Positions 12,391-45,071 of a stretch of DNA of 64,000 nt are shown here, one piece after another. Every line of letters starts with the position of its first letter. The first letter of the stretch is position 1. Source of the DNA: Gemmatimonadota bacterium (GTDB lineage Bacteria > Gemmatimonadota > Gemmatimonadetes > Longimicrobiales > RSA9); the NCBI GenBank assembly GCA_037388885.1, contig JARRJS010000003.1, positions 4,422 through 68,421 of the forward strand. The letters run 5' to 3'. Both the position numbers and the translations under genes were made by a program. The notes below the pieces were generated by a model. The model made no database searches, was not told the origin of the DNA, and worked only from the letters and a program-made list of their open reading frames with translations.

Positions 12391-13515
12391 TCAGACCGAT
12401 ATGCGCTCGTGGCGCACGGTGAGGTCATCCAGCCGGTCCAGGTCAACGTCCACACCGAGTCCCGCGCGGTCCAGCGGCACCTCCATGGTGCCGTCGCCGG
12501 TCATCGTCCACTCGGGCGTTACGATGTCGCGATCCCAGTACCGGGCGCTCGGCGAAAGATCGCCCGGAAGCTGGAAGTTGGGGAGGGAGGCCAACGCCAC
12601 GTTGTACGCGCGGCCGATGCCGCTTTCCAGCATGCCGCCGCACCAGACCGGCAGACCCGCCCGTTCGCAGATGTCATGGATCTCGTTGGACGCGCTGAAG
12701 CCGCCCACGCGACCCGGCTTGATGTTGATGATCCGTCCGCTACCCAGGGTGATCATGTCTTCCGCGTGCCTCGGGGAGTCGATGGACTCGTCCAGGCAGA
12801 GCGGCGTGCGCAGACGCTTCTGGAGCGCCGCGTGGCGGACCAGGTCAGAACGGTCGAGCGGCTGCTCGATCATCATCAGCTCCAGCTCGTCCAGCCGCGC
12901 CAGCACGTCCGCACGGTCCAGGGCATACGCCGAGTTGGCATCCACCATGAGCGGCGCGTCCGGACCCAGCGCCTCCCGCACCGCCGCCGCGGTCTCGTAG
13001 TCGGCGCCCGGCTTGATCTTCATCTTGACCTTGCGGTAGCCCTGCGCCAACGCCTCGCGGGCACGCTCCACCAGCGCGGCCGGACTGGCCTGGATACCCA
13101 AAGAGATACCCACGGGCACGCGCGTGCGCGTGCCGCCCAGCAGGCGCGCCAGGGGCAGCTCGCGCAGCGTCGCCGCCAGCGCCCAAAGGCCCATCTCGAC
13201 GGCCGCCTTCGCCATCTGGTGACCCCGGAAATCCTGCTCCAACACCGCCCGTACATCGCCCGGCTCCTCGAAGGTGCGACGCAACACCCGCGGCGCTACC
13301 CACGACTTGATGGCCAGCCATGCGGTGTCGATTGTCTCCGGGCTGTAATTCGGCGCCTCGCCCGCCACGCACTCCGACCAGCACGACACACCGTCAGGGT
13401 GCACCAGCTCCAGGATCAGGATCCGACGATCTTTCACCATCCCCGACGAAATCTCAAACCGTTCCTTCAACGGCAGCGCAATCTCCCTCAGGATCAACTC
13501 GTCGACCCTCAACAT
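12391..13515 (-). CDS. Enolase-superfamily MLE-subgroup enzyme: N-acyl(succinyl)amino-acid racemase / o-succinylbenzoate synthase family
   Basis: The full catalytic set is visible: KxK (YRKVKMKIKPG), metal ligands (MVDANSAY, MMIEQPL, LCLDESI) and the second Lys (INIKPGRVGG). There is no signal peptide, and no other men genes are in the window. Confidence 0.85.
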   Translation of the reverse strand: MLRVDELILREIALPLKERFEISSGMVKDRRILILELVHPDGVSCWSECVAGEAPNYSPETIDTAWLAIKSWVAPRVLRRTFEEPGDVRAVLEQDFRGHQMAKAAVEMGLWALAATLRELPLARLLGGTRTRVPVGISLGIQASPAALVERAREALAQGYRKVKMKIKPGADYETAAAVREALGPDAPLMVDANSAYALDRADVLARLDELELMMIEQPLDRSDLVRHAALQKRLRTPLCLDESIDSPRHAEDMITLGSGRIINIKPGRVGGFSASNEIHDICERAGLPVWCGGMLESGIGRAYNVALASLPNFQLPGDLSPSARYWDRDIVTPEWTMTGDGTMEVPLDRAGLGVDVDLDRLDDLTVRHERISV

Positions 13516-13646
13516 CCGTCCGCCTCCAGTCCAACTGTGTCAGTACGATGCGCGACCTCGTCGCCAGCCGCCGCCCTCCGGGCGGAACGGAGGCGCCTGT
13601 CGCGGGAATCCTTGCACGAATGAGCGGCACTCATTAATGTAGCCCT

Positions 13647-13658
13647 AAGTGTATACAA
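13647..13658. promoter_or_regulatory. Candidate operator AAGTGTATACAA (palindromic core TGTATACA) in the divergent racemase/susC promoter region
   Basis: The exact reverse complement recurs at 28652..28663, upstream of the GNAT gene and next to the GntR gene. Both copies sit in locally AT-rich intergenic DNA. Confidence 0.45.
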
Positions 13659-13800
13659 AACTCCATGCAGCATGGTGTGCGATGCACGCCGCAATCATAC
13701 ATGGCACGTGCCGCGGGGATCAAGTATCTGGATGTCCGCGACCAGGTCCGACGTCGGTTTCTGTGTGGTTCGAGGTCGTAACAGCTGATGGAGGGATGCT

Positions 13801-16800
13801 ATGCGGCAGGAAGCCCTAGCCAGCTTCAAGCGACGGGGGATGGTGTGTCGTTCCCGAGGAGTTGCGCTGGCTCTGACCATTGGTTTGCTGGTAGTGAGTG
13901 TCGTCCCCGTGCAGGCACAGACCGGGGCGATCGGCGGGACTGTCGTAGCGGGGAAGACGTTACGTCCTCTGGCCGGGGCCCAGGTGGTACTGATGGGCAC
14001 CAAGAGGGGGACTCTAACGGACTCGAATGGTCGGTTTCTGATTCCGGGTGTGGCCGGGACCACGGCAAGGCTGCAGGTGGTCATGATCGGTTACAAGACG
14101 GAAACACTGACGGTGCCGGTGGGAAAGCTGGACATCGAGGTCAGCATGCAGGTGGCGGCGGTTGCGTTGAATCGGATCGTGGTCACAGGGCAACCGGGTG
14201 GAGCGCGCGCTAAGTCCATCGGAAACTCGGTGGACGTCGTCGATGCTGCAACGGTGGCTTCGACGCAGCCGGTGAACAATGTGCAGGACATGCTGGATGC
14301 ACGGGCACCGGCGGTTTCAATCATGCGCGGCACCGGCATGGTCGGGGCGGGCTCCCGTATCAGGATCCGCGGGATCACGAGTTTCTCGCTGTCGGGCAAT
14401 CCACTCATCTACGTGGACGGCATCCGTGTGGACAACGAGTCGAACAGCGGGATTTCCATCCAGGCATTCGGCTCGGCGGTTGTCTCACGACTGAATGACT
14501 TCGACCCGGCCCAGATCGAGAGCATCCAGGTCTTGAAAGGGGCGGCGGCGACAACGTTGTTCGGAACCGAGGCGGCGCGTGGTGTGATCAACATCATCAC
14601 GAAGAAGGGCGCCCCCGGGGCGACGACGTACAACTTCACGATCAAACAGGGGGCCAACTGGTTCTCTAATCCAGAAGGTCGGATGCCGACAAACTACTGG
14701 CGGGATCCGTCGGGCAACATGGTCGCGCTGTCGTTCGCCGATCTTCAGAAGCTCTACGGCCGGAACATCTTCCGTACGGGGGGGCTCCAAACGTATGACG
14801 CGAATGTGAGCGGCGGTTCCGAGGTCCTGCGTTATTTCGTCGCAGGCGACCTCACTCAGAACCAGGGCGCCGAGCCGAACAATTTCAAGAATCAGTTCAG
14901 TGGCCGGGTGAATCTCGACATCCAGCCGTCGTCCAAGATCCACATTACGACGAGCGCGGGCTATGTGAACAGCCGAACGGAGTTGAGCTGTGAGGCGGGT
15001 TGCGGCGGCGCCATGTGGGACGCGACCTACTCGACACCGGCGCACTTGCCGCAATACGAGTGTGCGGCCACGGGCAACGCCTACGGCTGTGGCTTCCAGC
15101 TTGGATTCCGCAGCTGGACGCCGGAAGCAGAGCGGGCGATGCTGGACTACCAGATGGTGCACCGCTTCACCGGCAGCGTGAACCTGGAGTGGAAGCCGTT
15201 CAAGTGGATGACGCACCGATTGGTGGTGGGAACCGACTTAACGGAGGAGAAGAACCCGGAGCACCTGCCGTATCTGACGAACGATACGCTCATCTACTTC
15301 TGGGGGCCATACTACAGCAAGGGCTACACGTGGGAAAACCTGACCACGCACGTGTATCGCACGTTCGATTACGCAGGCACGGTGGATTTCGATGTCAACC
15401 CGCACGTGAACTCCTCCACATCCTTCGGTCTGCAGTACTACACGAAGCACATGGAATTCCTGCAGGCGGAGGGCGACCAGTTCTCGGCGCCGGGCCTGTC
15501 GACGATCAACGCGACAGCGACACAGGTGGGCGTGCACGGCGACTACGAGGACAATTTCACGCTGGGGATGTACGGCCAGGAACAGGTGGCGTTGAACGAC
15601 CGGCTGTTCCTGACGGCCGCCGTTCGCGTGGACAACAACTCTGCATTCGGCTCGGACTTCCAATGGGTCGTCTACCCCAAAGCAAGCCTGTCCTGGGTAC
15701 TGAATGAAGAGCCTGCAGTACGGAGGCGCATGCCGGATTGGATCGACGCATTCAAACTGCGGATGGCGTACGGAGAGTCCGGCCAGCAGCCACAGGCTTT
15801 CTCGGCCCTGCGGACGTACGAGCCCGTCACCGGGAGCCAGGATCGGCCAGCGATCACGCCCCAGGCCGTCGGCAATCCGAATCTGGGTCCGGAGCGCGTG
15901 AAGGAGATCGAAGCGGGCTTTGATGCGGGTCTGTTCAACGACCGGGTCGGCGCCGAGTTCACGTACTTCCACAACCGCACCGTGGACGGGATCCTTCTCC
16001 GTCCCGTACCCCCTTCCAGCGGGTTCCCCGGTTCGCAGTATGTGAACGCGGGTGAAATCACCGGCCATGGCATCGAAGTGACGGTGCACGGCTCAGTGCT
16101 GAACCTCAAGAACTTCGGCTGGGACCTGGCCTTCAACGTGTCGACCAACCACACGAAGGTGACGAAGCTGTATGGCAACGACACGACCATCGTGACGGGC
16201 AGCACACAGTACAAGCTGGGCTACCCGGCCAACGCATGGTTCCGGGAACGCGCCGTGAGCGCGACGTACGACCCGACGACGGGCCGCGCAACCAACATCA
16301 TGTGTGATGACGGCAACGGCGGGACGACCCCGTGTTACGGTCCGAATGGGGAGGTGCTCGCGCCGCGCGTGTACATGGGCAACACCCAGCCGACGACCAC
16401 CGGTGGAATCACGTCGACGTTCATGATCTTTTCCAGGCTACAGCTGAACACGGTGGTCGATTTCAGCCTGGGCAACAGGAAGTGGGACAACAACCTGCGG
16501 GTGCGTTGCCAGATCTTCCTGACCTGCCTCGAAAACATGAACCCGGAACAATATGATCCTGCCCTGATCGCGGGGATTCAGAGCAACGACATCCTGAACC
16601 AGTGGATCATCAACGACGCGAGCTTTGCCAAGCTCCGGGAAGTGTCCCTGCGGTATACGATGCCGGCTTCCTTCGCGCAAAAGATCGGTGCCAAACGGGC
16701 GTCCATCACCATCGCCGGCCGCAACCTGCATACGTGGTCGAAATGGACGGGGCTGGATCCGGAAAACATGTTCCTGGGCGGGCCTACGTTCCTGGAACAG

Positions 16801-16854
16801 GACAATCTTCCGCAGCTTATGCAGTTCGTGACCACCATCAATGTCAGCTTTTAG
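13801..16854 (+). CDS. SusC/RagA-family TonB-linked outer-membrane transporter
   Basis: GGAGG lies upstream of the ATG. A signal peptide is followed by a CarboxypepD_reg domain (GAIGGTVVAGKTLRPLAGAQVVLMGTKRGTLTDSNGRFLIPGV). The plug carries the GVINIITKKG signature. The barrel is about 1000 aa and ends ...TINVSF. A SusD-like gene follows immediately. Confidence 0.92.
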   Translation: MRQEALASFKRRGMVCRSRGVALALTIGLLVVSVVPVQAQTGAIGGTVVAGKTLRPLAGAQVVLMGTKRGTLTDSNGRFLIPGVAGTTARLQVVMIGYKTETLTVPVGKLDIEVSMQVAAVALNRIVVTGQPGGARAKSIGNSVDVVDAATVASTQPVNNVQDMLDARAPAVSIMRGTGMVGAGSRIRIRGITSFSLSGNPLIYVDGIRVDNESNSGISIQAFGSAVVSRLNDFDPAQIESIQVLKGAAATTLFGTEAARGVINIITKKGAPGATTYNFTIKQGANWFSNPEGRMPTNYWRDPSGNMVALSFADLQKLYGRNIFRTGGLQTYDANVSGGSEVLRYFVAGDLTQNQGAEPNNFKNQFSGRVNLDIQPSSKIHITTSAGYVNSRTELSCEAGCGGAMWDATYSTPAHLPQYECAATGNAYGCGFQLGFRSWTPEAERAMLDYQMVHRFTGSVNLEWKPFKWMTHRLVVGTDLTEEKNPEHLPYLTNDTLIYFWGPYYSKGYTWENLTTHVYRTFDYAGTVDFDVNPHVNSSTSFGLQYYTKHMEFLQAEGDQFSAPGLSTINATATQVGVHGDYEDNFTLGMYGQEQVALNDRLFLTAAVRVDNNSAFGSDFQWVVYPKASLSWVLNEEPAVRRRMPDWIDAFKLRMAYGESGQQPQAFSALRTYEPVTGSQDRPAITPQAVGNPNLGPERVKEIEAGFDAGLFNDRVGAEFTYFHNRTVDGILLRPVPPSSGFPGSQYVNAGEITGHGIEVTVHGSVLNLKNFGWDLAFNVSTNHTKVTKLYGNDTTIVTGSTQYKLGYPANAWFRERAVSATYDPTTGRATNIMCDDGNGGTTPCYGPNGEVLAPRVYMGNTQPTTTGGITSTFMIFSRLQLNTVVDFSLGNRKWDNNLRVRCQIFLTCLENMNPEQYDPALIAGIQSNDILNQWIINDASFAKLREVSLRYTMPASFAQKIGAKRASITIAGRNLHTWSKWTGLDPENMFLGGPTFLEQDNLPQLMQFVTTINVSF

Positions 16855-16869
16855 ACCGGGAGCGCCAAC

Positions 16870-18156
16870 ATGATTACGAGGATGAAGAAGTGCGGCGCAT
16901 TCGGCAAAGCCGGCCGGGACCTTGCGATCCTGTTCCTGAGCATGTCGGTGTTGGCGGCTTGCGACACGAGTCGCTTCCTGAATGTCACCGCGCCGAGCCG
17001 GCTGCCGGCGGCCGATTTGGAATCGCCTTCGAACGCACCGCTTCTGGTCGACGGCGCCGTGGAGGACTTTGGCTGCGCGTTCGCATCCGTGGTGCTCGTG
17101 GAGGCGATCGTGAGTGATGAGTTCTCCGACGCGCAGCTGGGCGCGGCGGCCTGGCCGTACGACCGCCGGGATGCGAATACGCAACCGAGCGGCATCTACG
17201 GCACCAGCGGCTGCGACAGCAACCAGAATCCGGGCGTGTACCGGCCCCTGTCCACGGCACGTTTCTCAGCCGACAACGCCCTGAAGCTGCTACAGGGCTG
17301 GACCGACGCGGAGGTGCCGAAGCGGGACTCGCTGATAGCCGTGGCGGCCCTGTATTCAGCGTACAGCTACACATGGCTCGGCATGACCATGTGCAACGCG
17401 GCTATTGACGAGGGTCCGGAGATCGGCCAGCAGGATTTGTTCGCCCTGGCGGAGGACAAGTTCAACCTGGCGATCCAGGAAGGAGGGACGGCCGGGCTCA
17501 CCGACCTTGTCAACGCGGCCTACGTCGGCCGGGCCCGGGTCCGTTTGTTCCAGGGCGACATGAGCGGGGCGATCAGCGACGCCCAGCAGGTGCCTGCCGG
17601 CTTCGTCTACAATGCCGATTACTCGAGCGCCAACAACCGTCGCTACAACCGGGTCTTTGCATCCAACGTGCAGTACCGGATGTACTCCGTGGAGGACCAG
17701 GACCGCGCCTTGATGACGGCAGGCGTCGTGGACCCGCGGACGGTAGCGCAGGATTCGCACCAGGCGGGTGCCGACGGCAGCGACGTCTGGGTTCAGACGA
17801 AGTATACCAGCTTCTCGAGCCCGATTCCCATTGCCAAATACGAAGAGGCACAGCTCATCCTGGCAGAGGCCGAAGGCGGCCAGGCGGCGGTGGCCATCAT
17901 CAACGGGCTGCGTGACGAAGTCGGTCTGCCGCATTTCCAGAGCACGGATCCTCAGGCGATCATGAACCAGGTGATCGATGAGCGTCGCAAGGTCTTGTTC
18001 GTGGAAGGGCAGCGCCAGTACGACATCGAGCGATTCAATCTGCCACAGGTCCCCGCGCCGGGTACGGCGTACCCGGTCAAGGGTGGCACGTATGGCAACA
18101 CGACGTGCTTCCCGCTTCCCAATGTGGAGCGCTTCAACAATCCGAACATTCCTTGA
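16870..18156 (+). CDS. SusD/RagB-family nutrient-binding outer-membrane lipoprotein
   Basis: The gene starts 15 nt after susC. It has lipobox LAAC and an alpha-helical TPR-like composition. The C-terminal region (EEAQLILAEAEGG...ERRKVLFVEGQRQYDIERF) is typical of SusD-like proteins. Confidence 0.88.
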   Translation: MITRMKKCGAFGKAGRDLAILFLSMSVLAACDTSRFLNVTAPSRLPAADLESPSNAPLLVDGAVEDFGCAFASVVLVEAIVSDEFSDAQLGAAAWPYDRRDANTQPSGIYGTSGCDSNQNPGVYRPLSTARFSADNALKLLQGWTDAEVPKRDSLIAVAALYSAYSYTWLGMTMCNAAIDEGPEIGQQDLFALAEDKFNLAIQEGGTAGLTDLVNAAYVGRARVRLFQGDMSGAISDAQQVPAGFVYNADYSSANNRRYNRVFASNVQYRMYSVEDQDRALMTAGVVDPRTVAQDSHQAGADGSDVWVQTKYTSFSSPIPIAKYEEAQLILAEAEGGQAAVAIINGLRDEVGLPHFQSTDPQAIMNQVIDERRKVLFVEGQRQYDIERFNLPQVPAPGTAYPVKGGTYGNTTCFPLPNVERFNNPNIP

Positions 18157-18164
18157 CTTGTGAC

Positions 18165-18195
18165 CAGCCCCGGAGCCGAATCGGCTCCGGGGCTG
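18165..18195 (+). terminator. Strong GC-rich hairpin after susD (candidate intrinsic terminator/attenuator)
   Basis: CAGCCCCGGAGCC-gaatc-GGCTCCGGGGCTG forms a 13-14 bp perfect stem followed by TTGTGTATCTC. It lies 9 nt after the susD stop and 40 nt before the next start. Confidence 0.65.
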
Positions 18196-18235
18196 TTGTG
18201 TATCTCGGTCACAGGTGCATCCGGGCGCCACCAAA

Positions 18236-19801: not shown

Positions 19802-19842
19802 GGCCGCGCAGGCTTTTCCACTTCAACGCGAAGGAACGTCGC

Positions 19843-21525: not shown

Positions 21526-21526
21526 C

Positions 21527-23395: not shown

Positions 23396-23432
23396 AAGAC
23401 GTGCAACGGAGCTCGACCGGGGGACAGAGATC

Positions 23433-25865
23433 ATGCAGCGATACGGAAGCCGGATGAACCGGCGCATTGTTCCGATCATGTTGGCTGCCGTGGCGCTTTC
23501 CGGCTGCGGCAGGCGCGGCGGCGACACGGGCCGAGCACAGGGCTACGACGACGTCGTCCATGCGCTTCAGTCGTTCGTTCGCCATGAGCGCGCGGAAAAG
23601 GGCATTCCGGGCCTTTCTCTGGCGCTGGTGGACAGTCAGAGGGTCGTGTGGGCGGCCGGCTTCGGCTGGGCGGATTCCACGGCCGGCGTGCGCGCCACGC
23701 CCGAGACCGTGTACCGCGTGGGCTCCGTGTCCAAGCTGTTCACCGACATCGCGATCATGCGGCTGGTCGAGCGCGGCGAGCTGGACCTGGACGCGCCCAT
23801 CCAGAAATACCTGCCGTCGTTCGAGCCACGGAATCCGTTCGGCGGCACGATCACAATCCGGGAGCTGAGCGCGCACCGCGCGGGGCTCACGCGGGAGCCG
23901 CCGGTGGGCAGCTACTTCGATGACAGCAGTCCCACGCTTGCGCAGACGGTCGCATCGCTGAACCAGACCACGCTGCTGTATGCGCCGGGCAGCCACACGA
24001 AGTATTCCAACGCGGGCATCGCCGTGCTCGGTTACGTGCTCCAGAAGACGCAGGGCGCGTCCTTCTACCCGTATCTGAAGAGCACGCTGCTCGACTCCAT
24101 GGGATTGCACGACAGCGCCTTCCAACCGCTGCCTGCGCTCGAGCAGCGGCTGGCCAAAGGCTACATGTGGAGCTACGACGGGAAATTCTTCGATGCGCCC
24201 ACCTTCCAGCTGGGCATGGGGCCGTGCGGCAGCATGTACAGCACCGTGCTCGACCTGGCGCGCTTCGAGCGCATCCTGTTCGCGGGCGGCGTGGCGCCGG
24301 ACGGCCCGCGGATCCTGCAGCGTAAGACGCTGGATGAGATGTGGACGCCGCAGTTCGCGCCGAAGGATGCGAGGACAGGTTACGGCATCGGGTTCCACAT
24401 CGGGCAACTCGCCGGGCACCGGGTCGTGGGGCACGACGGCGCCATCTACGGTTTCGCGACAACGCTGACCGCGCTGCCCGACGACGGGCTCGGCGTCGTC
24501 GTCATCGCTTCGTTGGACGGCGTGAACGCCACCACCGACCGGATCGCAAACGCCGCATTGCGCCTGATGCTGGCCCGGCGCGAGCACCGGCCGCTGCCGG
24601 CGCTGGACACGACCACGGCGCTCGGCGCCGCGGACGCGCTCCGCCTCCAGGGTCGCTATCTGAAGGATGGCCGCGGCGTCGACCTCAAGGAATATGAAGG
24701 ACACCTGTATATGATGCCGACGGCCGGCGGGTTGCGCAGCGAAGTGCGACGACTCCCGGACGACAGCCTCGTGGTGGATGGGCGATTGGCGTACGGCCCG
24801 CGCATCACGCCCCTGGACGACGGGCGGCTGGTGCTCGGTGTCGACACGCTGTCGCGGGTGCCGACGGAGCATCCGGCAGCGCTGGTGACCCGGCCGAAAC
24901 CGAAGGCCGACATTTCCCCGGCGTTCCACGGACTGATAGGCGAGTACGGCTGGCCGTATGAGACGCTCTACATCTTCGAGAAGGACGGCCGGCTCCATGC
25001 GCTCATCGAATGGTTCTTCGAATATCCGCTGAAACGGGTGTCCCGGGACGTCTACGCCTTCCCCGATTGGGGGCTTTACGACGGCCAGAAGATCGTATTC
25101 GAACGCGACGCGGACGGGCAGGCACAGGCTGCCATCGCCGCCAATGTCACGTTCAAACGTATCCCGCTTCCGGGTGACGAGAACGGAGTTTCGTTCCGTA
25201 TCACGCCGGTGAAGCCGGTGTCGGAGTTGCGTACGGAGGCGTTGAAGGCTTCACCGCCCGCCGAGAAAGGTGATTTCAGAAAGCCCGACCTGGTGGAGCT
25301 GCGCAGTCTCGACCCGACCATCAAGTACGACATCCGCTACGCGACGACGAACAACTTCATGGGACACCCGTTCTACACCTCCGCCCACGCCTTCATGCAG
25401 CGTCCGGCGGCCGAAGCGGTGGCACGCGTCTCCCGGCTGCTGCGCCCGCTGGGCTATGGACTCTTGATCCACGACGCGTACCGGCCGTGGTACGTGACCA
25501 AGATGTTCTGGGACGGGACACCCGTGGACAAACACCAGTTCGTCGCAGACCCGAGCGAGGGTTCCCACCACAACCGCGGCTGCGCGGTCGATCTCACGCT
25601 CTACGACCTGAAGACAGGCCGGTCCGTGCGGACCACCGGCGGTTACGACGAGATGTCCGAGCGGTCCTACCCGCTATATCCTGGTGGCACCAATCATCAG
25701 CGCTGGCTGCGCGACTTGCTACGACACGCCATGGAGTCCCAGGGCTTCACCGTATACGAGTTCGAGTGGTGGCACTTCGATTACAAGGACTGGCAGCGTT
25801 ACCCGATCCTGAACATCACGTTCGAGCAGCTCGCCAGTCAGCACAGCGCCGAGGGTAGTCGTTGA
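23433..25865 (+). CDS. Fusion lipoprotein: R61/class-C-type serine hydrolase + linker domain + VanX/DdpX-type zinc D-Ala-D-Ala dipeptidase
   Basis: Lipobox LSGC is present. The N-terminal domain has SxxK (GSVSK), YxN (KYSN) and HxG (GHDG). The C-terminal domain (about 25281..25862) has SHHNRGCAVD (His..Asp zinc ligands, 25563..25592) and EFEWWHFDY (Glu/His), matching the VanX motifs. Confidence 0.85.
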   Translation: MQRYGSRMNRRIVPIMLAAVALSGCGRRGGDTGRAQGYDDVVHALQSFVRHERAEKGIPGLSLALVDSQRVVWAAGFGWADSTAGVRATPETVYRVGSVSKLFTDIAIMRLVERGELDLDAPIQKYLPSFEPRNPFGGTITIRELSAHRAGLTREPPVGSYFDDSSPTLAQTVASLNQTTLLYAPGSHTKYSNAGIAVLGYVLQKTQGASFYPYLKSTLLDSMGLHDSAFQPLPALEQRLAKGYMWSYDGKFFDAPTFQLGMGPCGSMYSTVLDLARFERILFAGGVAPDGPRILQRKTLDEMWTPQFAPKDARTGYGIGFHIGQLAGHRVVGHDGAIYGFATTLTALPDDGLGVVVIASLDGVNATTDRIANAALRLMLARREHRPLPALDTTTALGAADALRLQGRYLKDGRGVDLKEYEGHLYMMPTAGGLRSEVRRLPDDSLVVDGRLAYGPRITPLDDGRLVLGVDTLSRVPTEHPAALVTRPKPKADISPAFHGLIGEYGWPYETLYIFEKDGRLHALIEWFFEYPLKRVSRDVYAFPDWGLYDGQKIVFERDADGQAQAAIAANVTFKRIPLPGDENGVSFRITPVKPVSELRTEALKASPPAEKGDFRKPDLVELRSLDPTIKYDIRYATTNNFMGHPFYTSAHAFMQRPAAEAVARVSRLLRPLGYGLLIHDAYRPWYVTKMFWDGTPVDKHQFVADPSEGSHHNRGCAVDLTLYDLKTGRSVRTTGGYDEMSERSYPLYPGGTNHQRWLRDLLRHAMESQGFTVYEFEWWHFDYKDWQRYPILNITFEQLASQHSAEGSR

Positions 25866-26039
25866 GCTGGCGCACCGCGAGAAGGCACGGCGGGGATGCC
25901 TACGAAGTCGAAAATACGGAGGGAGGTTCGCCGGGGAGACCATGAACGCGTGCCGATCATGCAATCCGGCGCCGACACACGACGCGCGCGTGCCGACGCC
26001 GGGGCGCCGTGCCGTCCACGAAAGGGGGCGTACGCGGGT

Positions 26040-27686
26040 TCAGTGCCCGGTCGTGGCTGTGTCCGACGGCGCGATGGGGTACGCGTATGCCGCGGCGGCG
26101 ATCTCCCCCAGCGTCTGGCCAGCGATCTTCGTCACACCGTCCTCCAGGTCGGACGGGATTGGCACGCGGTTCAAGTAGAACGCGAACGCGAGATGCCGGC
26201 CGTTCACCGTCGTGATGTAGCCCGCGAGTCCCTTGGCCGTAAGGATGAGATGCTGGTTCAGCTTGTCGTACGCGCCGAACGTCCCCGTCTTCGCATGTAC
26301 GTGGCCGACGGCCGGGGAATGCGTCTGGATATTCCAGAGTGTGCCGTCCACGCCCAGGACGGGCAGCGCATTGTACAGATCGTTGAAATCATCACGCTCC
26401 CGCATGGCTGCCAGATAGCGAACCATGAAGTCGGGCGCGAAGAATGCGGACTGTGCGCCGCCCGCACCGTCCCCTTGCGACGCGCCGCTCAGGTCTAGCC
26501 CCAACTTGCCGAGGAAATCACGTTCGAGCTCGAAGCCTTTCTTCTCCGCATTCTGGTTCTCACCGCCCAGCACAGAGCCCAGGATGTAGGGCGTCATGCT
26601 GGCGTGCAGGTTCTGACTCACCTTCAGCGTGACCTTCAGTTCCTGCGAGAACGGCGGCGACGTATGCTCGGCAACGACATGGTCCGGTGTGTAAGAAGAC
26701 GAAAGTGCCTGGAAATCCACGACCTCGTTATACGGCGGCGGCTCTGCGCTCACACCGTCTTCAGCCAGCGCTTCGGAAAGCACCACTTCCGCGAAACGGC
26801 TCGGCTGCGGCACCGCGTACGAGAACAACCACGGCTGCGAGCCCGTCGGCATGCTGCCCGTGACCGTGACCATGTGGCTGCCATCCACCATGGTGCTGTC
26901 ATGCGCCCAATGGATCTCCACTTTGGTGGAATCCGCCGGGCCTGTCTCCGTCTTGTTCACGAACTGGACGTAGCTGGTCTGGGGCGAAGGCTGGATCGTC
27001 AGGGGCGCACTCAGCGAATCACCCGGCCCGATCGTCACGTCCACCAGGTTGTCGTTCACCGCAACCGGCGAGATCACCACGCCGCTGCCGAGCTCCCGAC
27101 TGCCCTCCGGGAACAACGACACGTCGACCAGCACGTGCCCCGTCACCCGCTTGATCCCGTGCTTCGCGATCTGGTCCGCCAACTGACGGATCACCTGCAA
27201 CGGATCACCCGGAACGGCTTTTGTATACTTGCTTCCATCGTACGCGTGATCCTCGTTCTCGAACGCCAGCGTTCCGTCCGGTTGAATCCGGTTCGACAAG
27301 TCCGGATCACCGCTCGCTACCAGCACGATATCGCCGTCCAACGTACCGTCCGCCGCGATGGGGCCGGTGCGGTACACCCGCGTCTTGAACCGGTGGTCCG
27401 CACCCAGCAATGCCAACGCCGTACCCTCCGTCACCAACTTGGTCGTCGACGCCGGGGTGAACAGCTTGTCCCCGTTGTGCACATAGAGCGGCTGGTGGTC
27501 GTCCAGCGAGTACACCTCCAGACCCCAGATCGAGTGCTCAAAGGCCGGACGCGCCATGATGGCCTTCACCACGTCCTGGAAGGTCGTGTCCTGTTGCGCT
27601 CGCACGCCCGCAGGAACAAGAACGCAGAACGCGAGGATCGCCGGTGCGACGCTGCGGTAGCCCAACCCTCGTCGGAAAGTTGTCAT
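26040..27686 (-). CDS. dacB: PBP4-type D-alanyl-D-alanine carboxypeptidase/endopeptidase (peptidase S13)
   Basis: ATG at 27686 is followed by a signal peptide (AILAFCVLVPAGVRAQQ). The SxxK (ASTTK), SxN-like (VSQNLHA) and KTG (HAKTGTF) motifs are present, with the inserted domains typical of PBP4. Confidence 0.85.
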   Translation of the reverse strand: MTTFRRGLGYRSVAPAILAFCVLVPAGVRAQQDTTFQDVVKAIMARPAFEHSIWGLEVYSLDDHQPLYVHNGDKLFTPASTTKLVTEGTALALLGADHRFKTRVYRTGPIAADGTLDGDIVLVASGDPDLSNRIQPDGTLAFENEDHAYDGSKYTKAVPGDPLQVIRQLADQIAKHGIKRVTGHVLVDVSLFPEGSRELGSGVVISPVAVNDNLVDVTIGPGDSLSAPLTIQPSPQTSYVQFVNKTETGPADSTKVEIHWAHDSTMVDGSHMVTVTGSMPTGSQPWLFSYAVPQPSRFAEVVLSEALAEDGVSAEPPPYNEVVDFQALSSSYTPDHVVAEHTSPPFSQELKVTLKVSQNLHASMTPYILGSVLGGENQNAEKKGFELERDFLGKLGLDLSGASQGDGAGGAQSAFFAPDFMVRYLAAMRERDDFNDLYNALPVLGVDGTLWNIQTHSPAVGHVHAKTGTFGAYDKLNQHLILTAKGLAGYITTVNGRHLAFAFYLNRVPIPSDLEDGVTKIAGQTLGEIAAAAYAYPIAPSDTATTGH

Positions 27687-27778
27687 TTGCCCGTCCCTTC
27701 GTGCGTCTGCAACATGGTTGCCGATCGGTCCATCCGTCCCTCTTGCTGTGACGCCTGAACGTCGGTTAAATTTATGGT

Positions 27779-27801
27779 ATCCAATATGTGATCCAATATT
27801 G
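27779..27801. promoter_or_regulatory. AT-rich repeat ATCCAATAT-gtg-ATCCAATAT (includes palindrome CAATATTG) in the divergent dacB/GntR intergenic region
   Basis: This is an exact 9-nt direct repeat with 12-nt period (27779..27787 and 27791..27799). It lies about 65 nt upstream of the GntR start, in the most AT-rich patch of the intergenic region. Confidence 0.35.
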
Positions 27802-27866
27802 CGTTCACGCAAGCGACGGGGAGGCCGGAAGGGCGGTAGGCGCAGAAACAACCCGTGAGGTGAGGG

Positions 27867-28577
27867 ATGTCACACAGCCAGCGCCAGAAGCGACACACGG
27901 ATCGAGGTACTCGTGCCTATGAACGCCTTCGCCAGTTGATCGTGCATGGTCAACTGGCTCCAGGCGCTTGGATTATCGAGAGTGACGTGGCCGACCGCCT
28001 GGGACTGAGCCGTACGCCTGTACGGGCAGCGCTGCAGCGATTGCATCAAGAGGGTTACGTGACCATCACGCGCCGCGGGCGGCAGGCGCGGGCTGCGGTG
28101 GCGCCCCTGACCCGGGAGGACGCGCGCGAATTGTTCGGGATGGTGGGCGCGATCGAGGCCTTCACGGCAGCGCGCACCGCGGAATTGCCGGACGGTCCCC
28201 GTGCCGCCGCCGCCGAGACCCTGGCCGCGCTGAACGGAGCGCTCGCGGAAGCCGCGGCCGCCAGCCGGCCCGAGCCCGCGCGCATCTTCGACCTGGATAT
28301 GACCTTTCACCGGCATTACGTAGAGGTCGGCGGAGGGCCCCGAACCATCGCGCTCCATGACGCCATCAAACCGCAATCTGAACGCTACATCCGCCTCTAT
28401 ACCAGCGCCCTGATCGACGAGATCGGGACTTCCGTGAAGGAGCATGAAGCCATTGTGGACGCCGTTCGCCGTGGTGATGTCGATGCGGCACGGGACGGAG
28501 TTCGAATCAACTGGGCCAACGCGAGCGGCCGGCTGAGCGGCGTCATCGACACGCACGGCGAAAAGGGCAGCTGGTAG
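27867..28577 (+). CDS. GntR-family transcriptional regulator (FadR-like, FCD C-terminal domain)
   Basis: A winged HTH (AYERLRQLIVHGQLAPGAWIIESDVADRLGLSRTPVRAALQRLHQEGYV) is followed by a helical effector domain of about 150 aa. Confidence 0.88.
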   Translation: MSHSQRQKRHTDRGTRAYERLRQLIVHGQLAPGAWIIESDVADRLGLSRTPVRAALQRLHQEGYVTITRRGRQARAAVAPLTREDARELFGMVGAIEAFTAARTAELPDGPRAAAAETLAALNGALAEAAAASRPEPARIFDLDMTFHRHYVEVGGGPRTIALHDAIKPQSERYIRLYTSALIDEIGTSVKEHEAIVDAVRRGDVDAARDGVRINWANASGRLSGVIDTHGEKGSW

Positions 28578-28651
28578 GGTTGTCCTCTCTTATTTGCGGT
28601 CCTTTGGACCAGTCGGTTCCTCATGCTTGTGGGCGCTGATCGCGTTCGGTA

Positions 28652-28663
28652 TTGTATACACTT
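28652..28663. promoter_or_regulatory. Candidate operator TTGTATACACTT (reverse complement of 13647..13658) upstream of the GNAT-permease-hydrolase operon
   Basis: It lies 57 nt upstream of the GNAT ATG. It overlaps a TTGACG -35-like hexamer (28663..28668). A degenerate direct copy GTACAC follows at 28668..28673. Confidence 0.45.
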
Positions 28664-28720
28664 TGACGTACACCGCGGGACGCAACTTGTCGATGGATCG
28701 TTGGGCCCAGGAGACAGCTG

Positions 28721-29587
28721 ATGAACGGAGGGGCAGCAGCGAGGGAAGGACTGTTGGAGCGCAGGGTGGAAATTCGTGCGTTGAAGACGCAGGAAGAGTT
28801 GAAGGCATGCGTGGCCTTGCAACGGGAGACGTGGGGCGACGACTATCACGACGTCGTGCCGGCGAGCATTCTACAGATCGCCCAGAAGGTGGGTGGTGTC
28901 GTGGCAGGTGCGTTCAACGAAAACGAGTTGGTCGGCTTCGTTTTCGGGCTGACGGGCACACGGCGAGGGCGCCTGGTGCATTGGTCGCACATGCTGGCGG
29001 TGAAGGACCGACTCCGGGACCAGGGCATCGGGCGGTATTTGAAGGAGTTCCAGCGTGACCGCTTGCGGGAGCAAGGCGTGGGCGTCATGCACTGGACGTT
29101 CGACCCGCTGGTGGCACGGAATGCTTACCTGAACTTGAAGCGGTTGGGCGTGGAGGTGGAGGAGTACGTGTGTGAAATGTACGGGGATACGGGCAGCGCC
29201 CTCCACCGTTTCGGCACGGATCGCTTCGTGGTGGGTTGGGAAACGTCCCGGAGGCCGGGGGGGCGCCTTGCAGAGGAGCAGAAGTGGCAGGATGCGCCTG
29301 TGCTGAACGGGCTGAAGGATGGAAGACGGGTCCCGGACGGCGGGCCCGTGCGGATCCAGATACCGTCGGATATCGAAGCCGTTTACGCGGATTCCCCGGC
29401 GGAGGCTATGCGTTGGCGGCGGACGACGCGGGATGCGTTCGAACAGTGTTTCGAGCAGGCTTACGGCGTCGCCGGCTTTCAACGGGAGAAGGTGAGCGGT
29501 CGTTGCTTTTATCTGCTTGAGCGGGGCGTGGATGGCGCGGGCAAGGTAGTGCAGTACGTGAGTCGCGGTTCGGGTGGCAAAGCGTGA
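28721..29587 (+). CDS. Large GNAT-superfamily acyltransferase (COG3375-like), cytoplasmic
   Basis: AGGAG lies 8 nt upstream. The 288-aa protein has a GNAT core (HMLAVKDRLRDQGIGRYLKEFQRDRLREQG) and no signal peptide. Confidence 0.65.
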   Translation: MNGGAAAREGLLERRVEIRALKTQEELKACVALQRETWGDDYHDVVPASILQIAQKVGGVVAGAFNENELVGFVFGLTGTRRGRLVHWSHMLAVKDRLRDQGIGRYLKEFQRDRLREQGVGVMHWTFDPLVARNAYLNLKRLGVEVEEYVCEMYGDTGSALHRFGTDRFVVGWETSRRPGGRLAEEQKWQDAPVLNGLKDGRRVPDGGPVRIQIPSDIEAVYADSPAEAMRWRRTTRDAFEQCFEQAYGVAGFQREKVSGRCFYLLERGVDGAGKVVQYVSRGSGGKA

Positions 29588-29630
29588 TCCGGACGCTGCA
29601 GGCCGACCGGGGAACGGAGTGCGGCCGGCC

Positions 29631-30977
29631 ATGACATCGACTGACAAGGGATTGACCCGAATCCTGGGATTCCACGATCTCCTGTTGATCGTCATGGGGA
29701 CGGTGATCGGATCCGGGATCTTCCTGGTGCCGGGTGCCGTGCTGCGCCAGACCGGCGGGCGTGTGGGGACGGCGTTGCTGGTGTGGCTGTTGGCGGGCGT
29801 GCTTTCGCTGCTCGGGGCGCTGACGTATGGCGAGCTGGGTGCGATGCAACCGGAGGTTGGCGGCCTCTACGTCTACATCCGGGACACGTTCGGTCCGCTG
29901 CCGGCGTTCCTATACGGCTGGACGCTGTTCTTTGTCATCAGCAGTGGGTCGGTGGCCACACTGGCCGTAGCGTTTGCTGCGTACCTGCAGCCATTCGTGG
30001 CCCTCGGTCCGGGTGCGCGGAAGCTGGTCGCCATCGCAATGGTCGCTGTGGTGGCGGCTGTGAACGTCAGGGGGACCGGGCAAAGTGCGCGAGTCCAGGG
30101 CTGGTCGACCGGCATCAAGGTGATCGCCCTGCTTGTCATGAGCGCCTTGCTGCTGGCCGTGGGCCGTGGGTTTGGTGGAGGTGTGCCGCTGTGGCCGACA
30201 CACGTCACAAGTTCGGTGCTGGCCGGTTTAGGGCCGGCGATGGTGGCGACGTTGTGGGCGTATGAGGGCTGGCAGTACGTCACGTTCTCCGCAGGCGAGA
30301 CGCGGGATCCGCAGCGTGTGTTCCCACGCGGGATCATCGCGGGTACGGCCGGGTTGATCGTCGTCTATCTGCTGGCCAACCTGGGCTATGTGGCGGCCCT
30401 GGGATCGCGGGGTGTCGCGGCGTCCGACAGCGTCGCCGCTGCAGCCGTGCAGGCGTTGTTCGGGTCGCGCGCCGCTCAGGTGGTCGCGCTAATCATCCTG
30501 ATCGCCATGTTCAGCGCGGCAAACGGTTTGACGCTGACGGCAACGCGTGTCTACTACGCCATGGCCCGTGATCGGCTCTTCTTTCGCCGGTTGGCGGAAG
30601 TGCATCCCCGTTTCGGCACGCCTGCTTTCGCCATTCTGCTCAGCTCTGCCTGGGCGATGCTGCTGGCATTGACCGGCACGTTCGATGAGTTGTTGACCTA
30701 CGTGGTCTTCACCGGTTGGATATTTTACGCGCTCGCTGCCTTGAGCATCTTCGGCTATCGACGCTCGAAGCCCGATGCGCCTCGGCCCTTCCGCGTACCC
30801 GGGTATCCGTGGACCCCGATACTCTTCGTGCTCTCCGCCCTGGGAATCGTCCTGAACACACTGTTCGTTCAGCCAAAACAGGCGCTCGCCGGCATCGCCG
30901 TGGTGCTGGTGGGTGTGCCTGCGTTCCTGATGTGGCGCCGCCGCGGCATGTCTTCCCGCCCAGCGGCCGATGGCTGA
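29631..30977 (+). CDS. APC-superfamily amino-acid permease
   Basis: About 12 TM segments are predicted. The N-terminal signature is LLIVMGTVIGSGIFLVPGAVL. The stop overlaps the next start (TGATG). Confidence 0.88.
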   Translation: MTSTDKGLTRILGFHDLLLIVMGTVIGSGIFLVPGAVLRQTGGRVGTALLVWLLAGVLSLLGALTYGELGAMQPEVGGLYVYIRDTFGPLPAFLYGWTLFFVISSGSVATLAVAFAAYLQPFVALGPGARKLVAIAMVAVVAAVNVRGTGQSARVQGWSTGIKVIALLVMSALLLAVGRGFGGGVPLWPTHVTSSVLAGLGPAMVATLWAYEGWQYVTFSAGETRDPQRVFPRGIIAGTAGLIVVYLLANLGYVAALGSRGVAASDSVAAAAVQALFGSRAAQVVALIILIAMFSAANGLTLTATRVYYAMARDRLFFRRLAEVHPRFGTPAFAILLSSAWAMLLALTGTFDELLTYVVFTGWIFYALAALSIFGYRRSKPDAPRPFRVPGYPWTPILFVLSALGIVLNTLFVQPKQALAGIAVVLVGVPAFLMWRRRGMSSRPAADG

Positions 30978-32359
30978 TGCGGCCCCGATCTGAGGGGTCG
31001 AAACGATCCCGCCCGCGCGCCGGCGTGACACGTGCGGGTGGGACCCTGCCCGTCTGGATCTGCGGTGTGGCTGCGGTCTCCGTATCGCTGGTCTTCGGTT
31101 GTTCGTCGAAGGACGTGTCAACCCTGGTGACCCCGCCGGACACGACAACGGTCGCTCCGATCGTCGTCACGGGCGTGGCGGAACCGGGCATGGCCAGCTA
31201 CGACACCGTGATCAGCTCTTTGATGCGTGAATACAACATCCCGGGCGGAGCGGTGGGGGTGGTGAAGGACGGGAAGTTGGTGTTCGCCCATGGGTACGGG
31301 TACGCGGACGTGGCGAACCAGGTCTCGGTGAAGCCGGATGCACTCTTTCGGCTGGCGAGCCTGTCGAAAGCAATCACGGCGGCGACGATCCTGCACCTCG
31401 TGGAGGAGGGGGTGTTGGGGTTGGACGACCCAGCATTCTCTTACCTCTCGGATCTGAGCCCACCGACAGGGAAGACGGAGGATGCCCGGCTGTCGCGCAT
31501 CACGATCCGGCAATTGTTGCAGCACTCGGGTGGTTGGGACCGCGATGCGACGTTCGACCCCATGTTCGAGTCGACGATGATCGCCGACTCGTTGGGCGTG
31601 GCGGCGCCGGCGTCGGCGGATGACGTGATCCGGTACATGACGGGTCGACCGCTGGATTTCGACCCGGGGGTGAGGTACGCGTATTCGAATTTCGGCTACG
31701 TGGTGCTGGGGGCGATTATCCAGCGGCTGACGGGAGAGCCGTACGTCGACTACGTAAAAGCGCAGGTCTTGCAGAACATGGGTATTCAGCGCATGGCGCA
31801 GGGCCACACCCTGCTGAAGGATTCCGTGCCAGGTGAGGTGCGCTATTACGCGGTGGGCGGGCAGGGTCTGGACTATCCGCTGGTCCAGTCGGTCTTCCCG
31901 GGGCAGGGGCTCGTGCCGCAAGCGTATGGCGGTTTCTACATGGAAGCCATGGCCGCGAATGGTGGTTGGGTGTCGAACACCATGGATCTGCTGCGCTTCA
32001 TCACGTCGGTGGACGGATTGCACAACCGGCCGCAGTTCCTGGCGGATTCGACGATTCGGCAGATGATCGCTCAGCCCACCGCTAACAACACCTGGCCGCC
32101 GGGCTCGGCTTACTGGTATGCCATGGGTTGGTTGGTGCGGCCGTCCAACGGGGATGCCAACTGGTGGCACACTGGGGGCTTGCCCGGGACGACGACGGAG
32201 ATGGTGCGTGCCTATAATGGAGTGGAGTGGGTGGCCCTCTTCAACGCCCGGGCGGTGAACGACGCCGGCTTCACGGCGGCCCTGGACAACAGTCTGTGGA
32301 CGGCACTGCAGGGTGTTACTTCATGGCCCACCACGGACCTCTTCCCGCAATATCCCTGA
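30977..32359 (+). CDS. Exported lipoprotein serine hydrolase, beta-lactamase/R61 DD-peptidase fold
   Basis: The ATG overlaps the permease stop codon. Lipobox LVFGC is present, with SxxK (ASLSK), YxN (AYSN) and HxG (WHTGG). Confidence 0.85.
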   Translation: MRPRSEGSKRSRPRAGVTRAGGTLPVWICGVAAVSVSLVFGCSSKDVSTLVTPPDTTTVAPIVVTGVAEPGMASYDTVISSLMREYNIPGGAVGVVKDGKLVFAHGYGYADVANQVSVKPDALFRLASLSKAITAATILHLVEEGVLGLDDPAFSYLSDLSPPTGKTEDARLSRITIRQLLQHSGGWDRDATFDPMFESTMIADSLGVAAPASADDVIRYMTGRPLDFDPGVRYAYSNFGYVVLGAIIQRLTGEPYVDYVKAQVLQNMGIQRMAQGHTLLKDSVPGEVRYYAVGGQGLDYPLVQSVFPGQGLVPQAYGGFYMEAMAANGGWVSNTMDLLRFITSVDGLHNRPQFLADSTIRQMIAQPTANNTWPPGSAYWYAMGWLVRPSNGDANWWHTGGLPGTTTEMVRAYNGVEWVALFNARAVNDAGFTAALDNSLWTALQGVTSWPTTDLFPQYP

Positions 32360-41506: not shown

Positions 41507-44851
<3,345 letters not shown>

Positions 44852-44994: not shown

Positions 44995-45071
44995 TTGCTG
45001 TGAGCCGTGGGTGCGGATTACAGTACGATCATGCCGAACGCTGGACACAGACAATCCGCGGAGAATCGACC

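Follow-up and report, generated by a model that had tools for sequence, protein, structure and literature searches.

SusCD pairs are the textbook glycan importers of Bacteroidota, and only a few other cargoes are known for them, namely peptides (RagAB), vitamin B12 and a ubiquitin-like toxin. In this paper we analyse a 64-kb window, the whole stretch of DNA under study, from a soil-type Gemmatimonadota genome (contig JARRJS010000003.1, about 66% G+C), in which a susCD pair lies among genes for exported hydrolases, a GntR/FCD regulator, an amino-acid permease and an enolase of a racemase family. An earlier interpretation made from the letters alone, called the sequence-only reading below, had proposed that this locus serves the utilisation of D-amino-acid peptides. 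Judging by protein families, motifs and gene linkage, we consider it rather probable that the locus is a SusCD-centred GntR/FCD regulon that scavenges D-amino-acid-containing peptides and salvages their residues by D-to-L conversion.

RagAB of Porphyromonas gingivalis combines a SusC-like 22-strand TonB-dependent barrel with a SusD-like lid and carries peptides, and the SusD protein described here is modelled with the same fold. RagAB belongs to Bacteroidota and imports L-oligopeptides produced by gingipains, with no adjacent D-peptidase, VanX, PBP4, NSAR or GntR/FCD gene. With 428 aa our SusD is the smaller protein, and its match to RagB is not better than its matches to glycan-binding SusDs. 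The polysaccharide utilisation loci (PULs) of Bacteroidota share a common plan with our locus, consisting of a susC-susD tandem, exported or lipoprotein hydrolases, an inner-membrane transporter and a local regulator. PULs contain carbohydrate-active enzymes (CAZymes), whereas the hydrolases here are of peptidase and amidase types, and because CAZymes are absent the locus is not a PUL in the strict sense. PULs are regulated by SusR, hybrid two-component systems or extracytoplasmic function (ECF) sigma/anti-sigma pairs, in contrast to the GntR/FCD protein and palindromic operator-like site found here. The presence of susCD tandems in Gemmatimonadetes has already been noted by PULDB (PMC5753385).

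On the enzyme side, Pab87 of Pyrococcus abyssi is an S12 peptidase with a lipocalin domain, a D-stereospecific aminopeptidase that trims terminal D-Ala from muropeptides; neighbouring genes encode a D-aminoacylase, an aminotransferase and a Dpp transporter, and a role in scavenging cell debris with D-residues has been proposed (PMC2651629). Pab87 is the nearest solved relative of the S12 enzymes in our locus. The Pab87 system differs in being archaeal and cytoplasmic with uptake by a Dpp ABC transporter; an outer-membrane importer, an M15 fusion, PBP4 and an NSAR route are all missing from it. VanX-family M15 dipeptidases are coupled to uptake for D-Ala-D-Ala nutrition in ddpXABCDF of Escherichia coli and in the periplasmic PcgL of Salmonella. 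In our locus, by comparison, an exported lipoprotein contains the dipeptidase as one of its domains, fused to an S12 domain, and the linkage is to a SusCD outer-membrane importer instead of an ABC transporter. Finally, a D-to-L conversion pathway has been described with a GNAT, NSAR and M20 architecture (bioRxiv 10.1101/2022.03.03.481873). A GNAT and an NSAR/OSBS-subfamily enolase are common to that pathway and to our locus; the M20 gene of the published pathway is missing from the window, and here the route sits inside a locus for uptake and hydrolysis.

The sequence-only reading knew of no described SusCD locus with this enzyme set, and in a search of 8 million full texts, in which subscription journals were thinly covered, we found none tied to the set, to a GntR operator or to triple fusions. 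As far as the families can tell, the locus appears to be a nutrient-utilisation architecture in which the predicted cargo class, the type of regulator and the phylum are all new.

Conservation of the gene neighbourhood

A scan of one genome per species gave 75 SusD loci, all from Gemmatimonadota metagenome-assembled genomes (MAGs), which we queried by tblastn with the window proteins and a few extra families. We compared 24 close loci, in which SusD is at least 55% identical to ours and the flank is at least 4 kb, with 35 distant loci that hold SusD paralogues from the same phylum and have similar flanks. The S12 hydrolases are found in 16/24 close and 4/35 distant loci, GntR in 14/24 and 0/35, Amidohydro_3 in 13/24 and 1/35, PBP4 (beside SusC) in 13/24 and 2/35, and GNAT in 13/24 and 0/35. 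The remaining families are less frequent: NSAR (8/24 against 0/35), M15 (8/24 against 1/35), M20 (7/24 against 0/35), APC (6/24 against 1/35) and S15 (3/24 against 0/35). At least one family of the set is present in 23 of the 24 close loci and at least three in 17, whereas 30 of the 35 distant loci have none. For the best families the nominal Fisher p values range from 1e-5 to 1e-7.

The order of the genes is shuffled between genomes, which argues for selection on linkage and not mere synteny. Locus L001, for instance, with a SusD 66% identical to ours, lacks only S15 from the set and has the other families in another order (PBP4, GntR, SusC, SusD, S12 with DUF3471, Amidohydro_3, S12 with DUF3471, S12::M15, GNAT-like, NSAR, permease). 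SusCD is flanked in L003 by S12 genes, two Amidohydro_3 genes and an S12::M15 gene, and in L005 SusC is adjoined by Amidohydro_3 and PBP4. Two MAG loci of Gemmatimonas aurantiaca, L025 and L028, hold the SusCD orthologue, accompanied in L025 by GntR, GNAT and S12 genes; on the short contig of L028 only SusCD is seen. The co-conservation of the hydrolase, regulator and salvage set with orthologous SusCD pairs, on which the sequence-only reading had suggested that its proposal be checked, is thus borne out in the 24 versus 35 loci, and we have high confidence in this linkage. Its expectation that orthologous SusCD pairs would lack neighbouring glycoside hydrolases also held, as there are none among the called genes at the orthologues examined.

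Other conserved or local neighbours were observed in these genomes. Five orthologous loci encode, directly 3' of SusD on the opposite strand, a DUF5916 protein of some 800 aa that also has a weak CBM9-like domain (for example L005 8417-10801, L012, L033 and L051 8987-11407); it is absent from the window. L003 carries beside SusCD (11389-17224) a proline-racemase-family gene, a fold-type IV aminotransferase, a short-chain dehydrogenase/reductase, a 376-aa protein and a tricorn-type protease. We considered its Aminotran_4 protein as a D-amino-acid transaminase and dropped it as evidence of D-specificity, since by NCBIfam it is nearer to branched-chain aminotransferases (BCAT; 218 against 88 bits). 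This variant suggests lineage-specific downstream routes. Directly upstream of the PBP4-GntR-SusCD block of L001 lie a penicillin-amidase-family (Ntn acylase) gene (1962-4124) and a MacB/FtsX-type exporter gene (1-1811), both seen in L001 only among the loci compared. A sister Gemmatimonadota/Longimicrobiales clade (L052-L079, SusD 46-50% identical) has other conserved neighbours, namely a TRAP transporter (DctP/DctM), a family III CoA-transferase, an S15 protein, an FAD-linked oxidase with an Fe-S domain and Amidohydro_1, and no glycoside hydrolases. These loci are a probable further example of a non-glycan SusCD system.

Hydrolases

The three S12 enzymes match PF00144 with 191 bits (the first, which also has PF11954 at 82 bits), 231 bits (the S12::M15 fusion) and 205 bits (the third). 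Their motifs are SNTK/YQN/HTG, SVSK/YSN/HDG and SLSK/YSN/HTG, respectively. They had been labelled as R61-type, the first of them as R61/class-C-type, on the basis of such motifs. The SxxK/YxN/HxG pattern is indeed present in all three, but their nearest type is Pab87/CubicO and not R61 or class C. The nearest PDB structure to the first S12 is Pab87 (2qmi), and the nearest structures to the third include Pab87, LACTB and alkaline D-peptidase. Class C beta-lactamase models of NCBIfam reach about 80 bits against a cut-off of 415, and matches to the AmpH model, at 66-94 bits, are also under the cut-off.

The M15 domain of the fusion protein matches PF01427 with 115 bits against a cut-off of 27. 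With SHHNRGCAVD at residue 711 and EWWH at residue 778, its zinc-ligand and catalytic motifs SxHxxGxAxD and ExxH are intact. The best NCBIfam model for the domain is that of DdpX (NF007557, 143 bits), whose cut-off of 176 is not reached, and the VanX model (NF033115) scores 92 bits against a cut-off of 320. For the fusion formerly described as R61-type::VanX-type, the S12::M15 architecture and the motifs therefore stand, whereas the equivalog scores for DdpX and VanX and the likeness to R61 do not. The fusion has over 3500 homologues, and its best matches include triple fusions of Amidohydro_3, S12 and M15 of about 1320-1380 aa (P0281, P0292, P0333 and P0358), and a DUF3471-bearing S12 is joined to S12::M15 in proteins of about 1300 aa (P0343, P0353, P0355, P0356 and P0360). 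The fusions are Rosetta-stone evidence that the predicted amidohydrolase, S12 and M15 activities act together.

The amidohydrolase is homologous to the D-aminoacylase of Alcaligenes faecalis (1m7j/1rjp, E 2e-66), in which we take the metal ligands to be Cys96, His220, His250 and the HxH pair His67/His69, and the catalytic residue to be Asp366. A residue-level alignment supports the family part of the earlier label "D-aminoacylase" and contradicts the canonical Cys and HxH ligands that the name would imply. The HxH pair is replaced by MxQ (QxQ or MxH in a second subtype) and Cys96 by a Gly that follows a conserved Glu (GEG for NCG), while the His220 position, one His of SHHK and the Asp of GSD are kept. 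The ligand substitutions are the same in the window protein and in all 13 homologues compared, including the second subtype, which is about 40% identical. Homologues with the altered site were seen in L001, L003, L013, L017-L021, L032, L043, L045, L051 and L075. Since the alterations are conserved, the enzyme looks like a member of a conserved subgroup with a different metal site, which is probably active. The substitutions suggest a mononuclear Glu/His/His site and an uncharacterised specificity.

The S15 protein matches TIGR00976 with 285 bits and the PDB entries 4pf1, 1mpx and 2b4k with E-values of 1e-163 to 1e-150. The positions GVSYPG (Ser), GDD, WDQED and GPWNH align with 1mpx and 2b4k; these correspond to the Ser-Asp-His triad and an acidic cluster that binds the alpha-amino group of the substrate. 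The CocE/NonD family assigned earlier is correct, but the place of S15 in the core set is not upheld: present in 3 of the 24 close loci, this enzyme of the alpha-amino acid ester hydrolase (AEH) type is accessory to the set. PBP4 is more straightforward. It matches PF02113 (225 bits) and TIGR00666 (172 bits, cut-off 108) and has the motifs STTK/SQN/KTG, and a convergently encoded PBP4 DD-carboxypeptidase, as previously described, is confirmed by the model score and the strand.

Proposed salvage of D-amino acids

The enolase, previously recognised as belonging to a racemase family, can now be narrowed to the NSAR/OSBS subfamily. It scores 314 bits with TIGR01928 (cut-off 200) and matches the N-acylamino acid racemases 1r0m, 2zc8 and 1sja from Deinococcus, Thermus and Amycolatopsis with E-values of 1e-92 to 1e-87. 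The catalytic Lys, the metal ligands and the second-shell Arg are represented by KVK162-164, D192, E217, D242 and K266-PG-R269. There are no men genes nearby, and in relatives the gene is paired with GNAT and M20 genes, a context that favours the racemase function over that of o-succinylbenzoate synthase (OSBS).

For the GNAT protein there is no sequence match in the PDB, and the fold search returned generic amino-acid or N-terminal acetyltransferases only. In the AlphaFold2 (AF2) model (pLDDT 88) the N-terminal 175 residues are nearest to PA4866, YncA, ArsN and PAT, which are amino-acid N-acetyltransferases, and also to N-terminal acetyltransferases, and the C-terminal 110 residues gave no fold match. 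On the strength of the model the protein is a candidate amino-acid N-acyl (succinyl) transferase. Several of its 288-aa homologues (P0126, P0134, P0170, P0172 and others) are named "chorismate synthase" in JGI annotations, probably a propagated misannotation.

GNAT and NSAR form a conserved pair in relatives and are split to opposite ends of the locus in the window. Together with M20 they are contiguous in L018, L019, L020, L022, L024 and L075, and the M20 protein encoded beside NSAR in relatives passes the threshold of TIGR01891, a subfamily of N-acyl-L-amino-acid amidohydrolases. The idea that D-amino acids are salvaged by N-acylation and racemisation thus gains from the identity of the NSAR and from the GNAT-NSAR-M20 grouping in 6-7 orthologous loci, and is not matched by an M20 gene within the window. 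We also examined whether the APC permease resembles CycA, the transporter of D-Ser, D-Ala and Gly, and rejected this possibility, as the CycA model gives only 52 bits.

Operator-like palindromes

The window contains exactly two copies of the 10-mer TTGTATACAC, whose palindromic core is TGTATACA, one upstream of susC and one upstream of the GNAT operon; the chance expectation is about 0.5 matches per window even when one mismatch is allowed. The intergenic region between PBP4 and gntR holds TGGTATCCAA, which has one mismatch to the variant TTGTATCCAA of related genomes. In L001 that variant stands between the PBP4 and GntR genes; in L008, L025, L026, L029, L031 and L033 it is located 5' of SusC. 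The related loci and the window (1.25 Mb) hold 15 perfect matches to the core, and for 11 of them SusC begins no more than 450 nt downstream. Every one of the 21 sites of the TGTATACA or TTGTATCCAA type in 1.18 Mb of related loci precedes the 5' end of a gene of the set by less than 500 nt; these genes are SusC, the PBP4/GntR pair, Amidohydro_3, and S12 or S12::M15. A palindrome of the form GT-N-AC is what a GntR operator is expected to look like. We infer that the GntR/FCD protein binds palindromes of the TTGTATACAA type, and it is presumed to be the repressor of the regulon.

The SusC/SusD pair and its hairpin

SusC scores 478 bits with TIGR04056 (cut-off 368) over residues 46-1017, and has a signal peptide and the Pfam domains Plug, TonB_dep_Rec_b-barrel and CarbopepD_reg_2. 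The SusC/RagA signature motif TIGR04057 is recognisable at a sub-threshold score (39.5 against 46.2 bits), and no STN signalling domain was detected with Pfam. SusD has a weak match to PF07980, 29 bits against a cut-off of 23, limited to its C-terminus. Its lipobox residue Cys31 is invariant across 28 homologues, and lipidation is predicted. An AF2 model built from these 28 homologues has a pTM of 0.83, and its top 50 fold matches in the PDB all belong to the SusD/RagB family (TM 0.39-0.62, E up to 7e-4), among them 6sli and 5cx8 (RagB). The model confirms a SusD fold for this small SusD-like protein. We attempted to separate RagB-like from glycan-type SusDs by PDB profile search and by fold search, and obtained generic SusD-family matches only. 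The protein has more than 1800 homologues, of which all named ones are from Gemmatimonadota.

The sequence-only reading had described susCD as followed by a tight hydrolase operon. The spacing is as described, but a strong hairpin with a 14-bp stem between susD and the first hydrolase had been overlooked. Hairpins of -25 to -43 kcal/mol lie within about 50 nt of the susD stop in most orthologous and paralogous loci, including L001, L003, L005, L009, L010, L016, L021, L025, L033, L065 and many others. Their sequences are unrelated between loci and usually lack a U-tract. The hairpin may be a partial terminator, or an attenuating or transcript-stabilising element that sets the ratio of susCD to downstream expression, and the hydrolase operon is probably expressed by way of read-through from, or processing of, the susCD transcript.

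Layout of the locus and neighbouring genes

Genes were called by listing and translating open reading frames (ORFs) with a codon-position GC filter, and families were assigned with Pfam and NCBIfam. In this way all twelve genes named earlier were recovered at the same coordinates (Table 1), and the profile search agreed with every family that had been stated for them. The gaps of 41, 1 and 37 nt in the hydrolase operon and the TGATG overlap of the permease stop with the S12 start are likewise as described before; the gap between the susC stop and susD is 15 nt. From a manual reading of the N-termini we find, in agreement with the earlier claim on export, signal-like sequences on all hydrolases, and also on SusC and SusD, and none on NSAR, GNAT and GntR. 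Four proteins have lipobox-like cysteines: SusD (LAAC), the amidohydrolase (ALGC), the S12::M15 fusion (LSGC) and the third S12 (VFGC).

Table 1. Features of the SusCD locus, in window coordinates, with predicted localisation and the supporting family models or remarks.
Feature	Position	Strand	Support and remarks
NSAR/OSBS subfamily enolase (MR_MLE), cytoplasmic	12391-13515	-	TIGR01928; divergent from susC
Operator-like palindrome GTGTATACAA, core TGTATACA	13649-13658	.	151 nt 5' of susC ATG, NSAR/susC intergenic
SusC/RagA TonB-dependent outer-membrane transporter	13801-16854	+	TIGR04056; Pfam
SusD/RagB lipoprotein, 428 aa	16870-18156	+	PF07980; AF2 fold
GC-rich hairpin, 14-bp stem, about -32 kcal/mol	18165-18195	+	terminator-like scan; directly 3' of susD stop
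Exported S12 with C-terminal DUF3471 lipocalin-like domain	18215/18236-19801	+	PF00144, PF11954; start GTG 18215 or ATG 18236
Lipoprotein Amidohydro_3, D-aminoacylase family	19843-21525	+	PF07969
Exported S15 CocE/NonD, AEH type	21527-23395	+	TIGR00976
Lipoprotein S12::M15 fusion (VanX/DdpX-type M15)	23433-25865	+	PF00144, PF01427
Exported PBP4-type S13 DD-carboxypeptidase/endopeptidase	26040-27686	-	PF02113, TIGR00666; convergent with hydrolases, divergent from gntR
Variant operator-like site TGGTATCCAA	27775-27784	.	PBP4/gntR divergent intergenic region
GntR regulator with FCD effector domain	27867-28577	+	PF00392, PF07729
Second exact operator-like palindrome TTGTATACAC	28652-28661	.	69 nt 5' of GNAT ATG
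GNAT acyltransferase, 288 aa, cytoplasmic	28721-29587	+	PF00583, weak match
APC-superfamily amino-acid permease	29574-30977	+	PF13520 186 bits; likely start ATG 29631
Lipoprotein S12	30977-32359	+	PF00144; translationally coupled to permease

The absence of glycoside hydrolases from the roughly 20 kb of the locus (12.4-32.4 kb) was confirmed with Pfam, which found no glycoside hydrolase (GH), polysaccharide lyase or carbohydrate esterase family there. Among the other scanned genes of the window there is no further member of PF00144, S13, M15 or Amidohydro_3. A 200-aa ORF at 25896-26498(+) was rejected as spurious; it was not selected by the composition-based gene call and overlaps the 3' end of PBP4. 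A sigma-70 promoter scan gave no more hits than shuffled sequence and is therefore not used as evidence.

Outside the locus, a carbohydrate/trehalose cluster at 41507-57267 encodes a GH2 beta-galactosidase, a GH13 protein, a GH65 phosphorylase/hydrolase and a trehalose-phosphatase/HAD fusion, as well as an ECF sigma factor and a PAS-GAF histidine kinase. It is unlinked to the SusCD pair, and between the SusCD region and the GH genes that begin at 41.5 kb are genes for a histidine kinase, lgt, a bactofilin and regulators. On the other side, near the NSAR gene, lies a second TonB-dependent receptor with a CarboxypepD_reg N-domain and no SusD partner (9091-11412, minus strand), and between the two a small cNMP-binding protein is encoded (11631-12125, minus strand). 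No conservation of this receptor or of the cNMP-binding protein was seen beside orthologous loci.

Discussion

The families in this locus suggest the following route. The SusD-like lipoprotein would capture a peptide, and the SusC-like TonB-dependent barrel would bring it across the outer membrane. In the periplasm or at the cell surface PBP4 could act on it as a DD-endo- or carboxypeptidase, the three Pab87-like S12 hydrolases as D-stereospecific amino- or carboxypeptidases, and the M15 domain fused to S12 would split D-Ala-D-Ala. The D-aminoacylase-like amidohydrolase might split N-acyl-D-Xaa or L-Xaa-D-Xaa, and the AEH-type S15 might remove N-terminal residues that bear a free alpha-amino group. 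Free amino acids would enter the cytoplasm through the APC permease. There GNAT would N-acylate D-amino acids, NSAR would racemise the N-acyl amino acid, and an M20 N-acyl-L-amino-acid amidohydrolase, whose gene lies beside NSAR in relatives and not in the window, would release the L-amino acid. At the susC, gntR/PBP4 and GNAT-operon promoters the GntR/FCD protein would occupy the palindromes until a pathway metabolite makes it let go. The topology fits such a route, with exported hydrolases and cytoplasmic NSAR, GNAT and GntR. The intact VanX-type motifs, the PBP4 score, the likeness to Pab87 and the identity of the NSAR all direct attention to D-residues, so that, as far as homology can be trusted, a D-peptide theme for the locus seems fairly likely. 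PBP4 and the VanX-type domain point to wall peptides that end in D-Ala-D-Ala. The cargo possibly comes from peptidoglycan-derived peptides and D-Ala-D-Ala of dead cells, or from D-containing non-ribosomal peptides. A narrower proposal, to which we give somewhat less than an even chance, is that this widespread Gemmatimonadota SusCD clade is a dedicated importer of peptidoglycan-derived D-peptides, which would operate with a GntR/FCD repressor, the TTGTATACAA operator, periplasmic Amidohydro_3::S12::M15 peptidases, and N-succinylation and racemisation.

Several observations weigh against a D-peptide scavenging regulon. The SusD fold gives no hint of the cargo, as RagB is no closer in the model comparison than glycan-binding SusDs are. 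The S12 family PF00144 also takes in esterases and beta-lactamases, and the second-best structural relative of the S12 enzymes is IS11, an esterase. Without Cys96 and the HxH pair the substrate of the amidohydrolase is uncertain and is not readable from its family name. We saw no MurNAc-L-Ala amidase, LD-carboxypeptidase or gamma-D-Glu-diaminopimelate peptidase in the locus, which leaves the set incomplete for the catabolism of stem peptides. The salvage pathway is also incomplete here, since tblastn found no M20 gene anywhere in the 64-kb window. The NSAR/OSBS enolase qualifies for the o-succinylbenzoate synthase model as well and could function in menaquinone synthesis, and the permease is a generic L-type amino-acid transporter with no D-amino-acid signature. 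The operator-like palindrome is also found 5' of SusC in some more distant clades with no adjacent GntR detected. Finally, the Fisher values are nominal because the loci come from related MAGs and are phylogenetically non-independent.

We weighed four other explanations against these data. The first is general scavenging of oligopeptides and amino acids in the manner of RagAB, with L-peptides as the cargo, the S12, S15 and amidohydrolase proteins as generic peptidases or esterases, and the D-labels as nothing but family names. RagAB demonstrates that a SusCD pair can import L-oligopeptides, the PDB relatives of our enzymes include S12 proteins that are not D-specific (LACTB and esterases), the permease is of the generic type mentioned above, and the L003 variant has a tricorn protease and a BCAT-like aminotransferase. 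Nevertheless we find this explanation unlikely. It gives no obvious role to M15, PBP4 and GNAT-NSAR-M20, which are among the best co-conserved members of the set, and the M15 domain is physically fused to S12 and to the amidohydrolase.

A second explanation, which we also judge to be improbable, is defence against, or consumption of, D-containing non-ribosomal peptide antibiotics or lipopeptides, whose fragments SusCD would import. S12-type D-stereospecific peptidases that cut gramicidin and lipopeptides are documented, for example in PMC9541196 and PMC12903863, and in L001 the genes just upstream include the penicillin-amidase-family gene and the MacB-type exporter. But a penicillin amidase is present in only 1 of the 24 loci, PBP4 and a D-Ala-D-Ala dipeptidase indicate chemistry of the cell-wall type and not non-ribosomal scaffolds, and the permease and the D-to-L salvage indicate nutrition and not resistance.

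Less probable still is housekeeping of the organism's own wall, in which PBP4, S12 and M15 would remodel or recycle its own peptidoglycan and SusCD would be an unrelated neighbour or serve another cargo. PBP4 and an AmpH-like S12 are classical wall-remodelling enzymes, though the AmpH scores here are sub-threshold. The linkage with SusCD is specific to this SusD clade and survives rearrangements, however, and the shared operator-like palindrome ties susC to the promoters of the enzymes. The products of own-wall turnover would moreover already be periplasmic, making an outer-membrane importer unnecessary. The scavenging or detoxification of beta-lactams or D-Ala-D-Ala mimics, with a class-C-like S12, a PBP4 decoy and an S15 acylase, is the least probable of the four: the S15 matches AEHs, which act on alpha-amino beta-lactams, at about E 1e-150 and the S12 proteins match class C models weakly, but these matches stay far under the cut-offs (about 80 against 415 bits), S15 is the least conserved member of the set (3/24 loci), beta-lactam catabolism has no use for NSAR, GNAT, M20, M15 or the amino-acid permease, and no phenylacetate or similar downstream pathway was seen. 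All four explanations fit M15, PBP4 and GNAT-NSAR-M20, the best-conserved members of the set, less well than the scavenging of D-amino-acid-containing peptides does.

Peptidoglycan peptides and D-amino acids form a large and slowly turned-over pool of nitrogen and carbon in soils and sediments. If the proposed scavenging of D-peptides is true, this locus would be the first SusCD system assigned to a D-peptide cargo. A link between SusCD and D-peptide enzymes at the level of a regulon would add a new cargo class to the paradigm and carry it into a poorly studied phylum that is abundant in soil. It would also give a molecular handle on the recycling of necromass nitrogen by this phylum, as a defined uptake and catabolic locus would make the consumption of D-peptides in soil directly testable. 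Physiological roles would be offered for several orphan families, namely Pab87-like S12 enzymes, AEH-type S15 enzymes, the D-aminoacylase subgroup with Glu in place of Cys, and NSAR. The analysis furthermore yields a candidate operator-regulator pair and natural multi-domain putative D-peptidases of possible biocatalytic interest.

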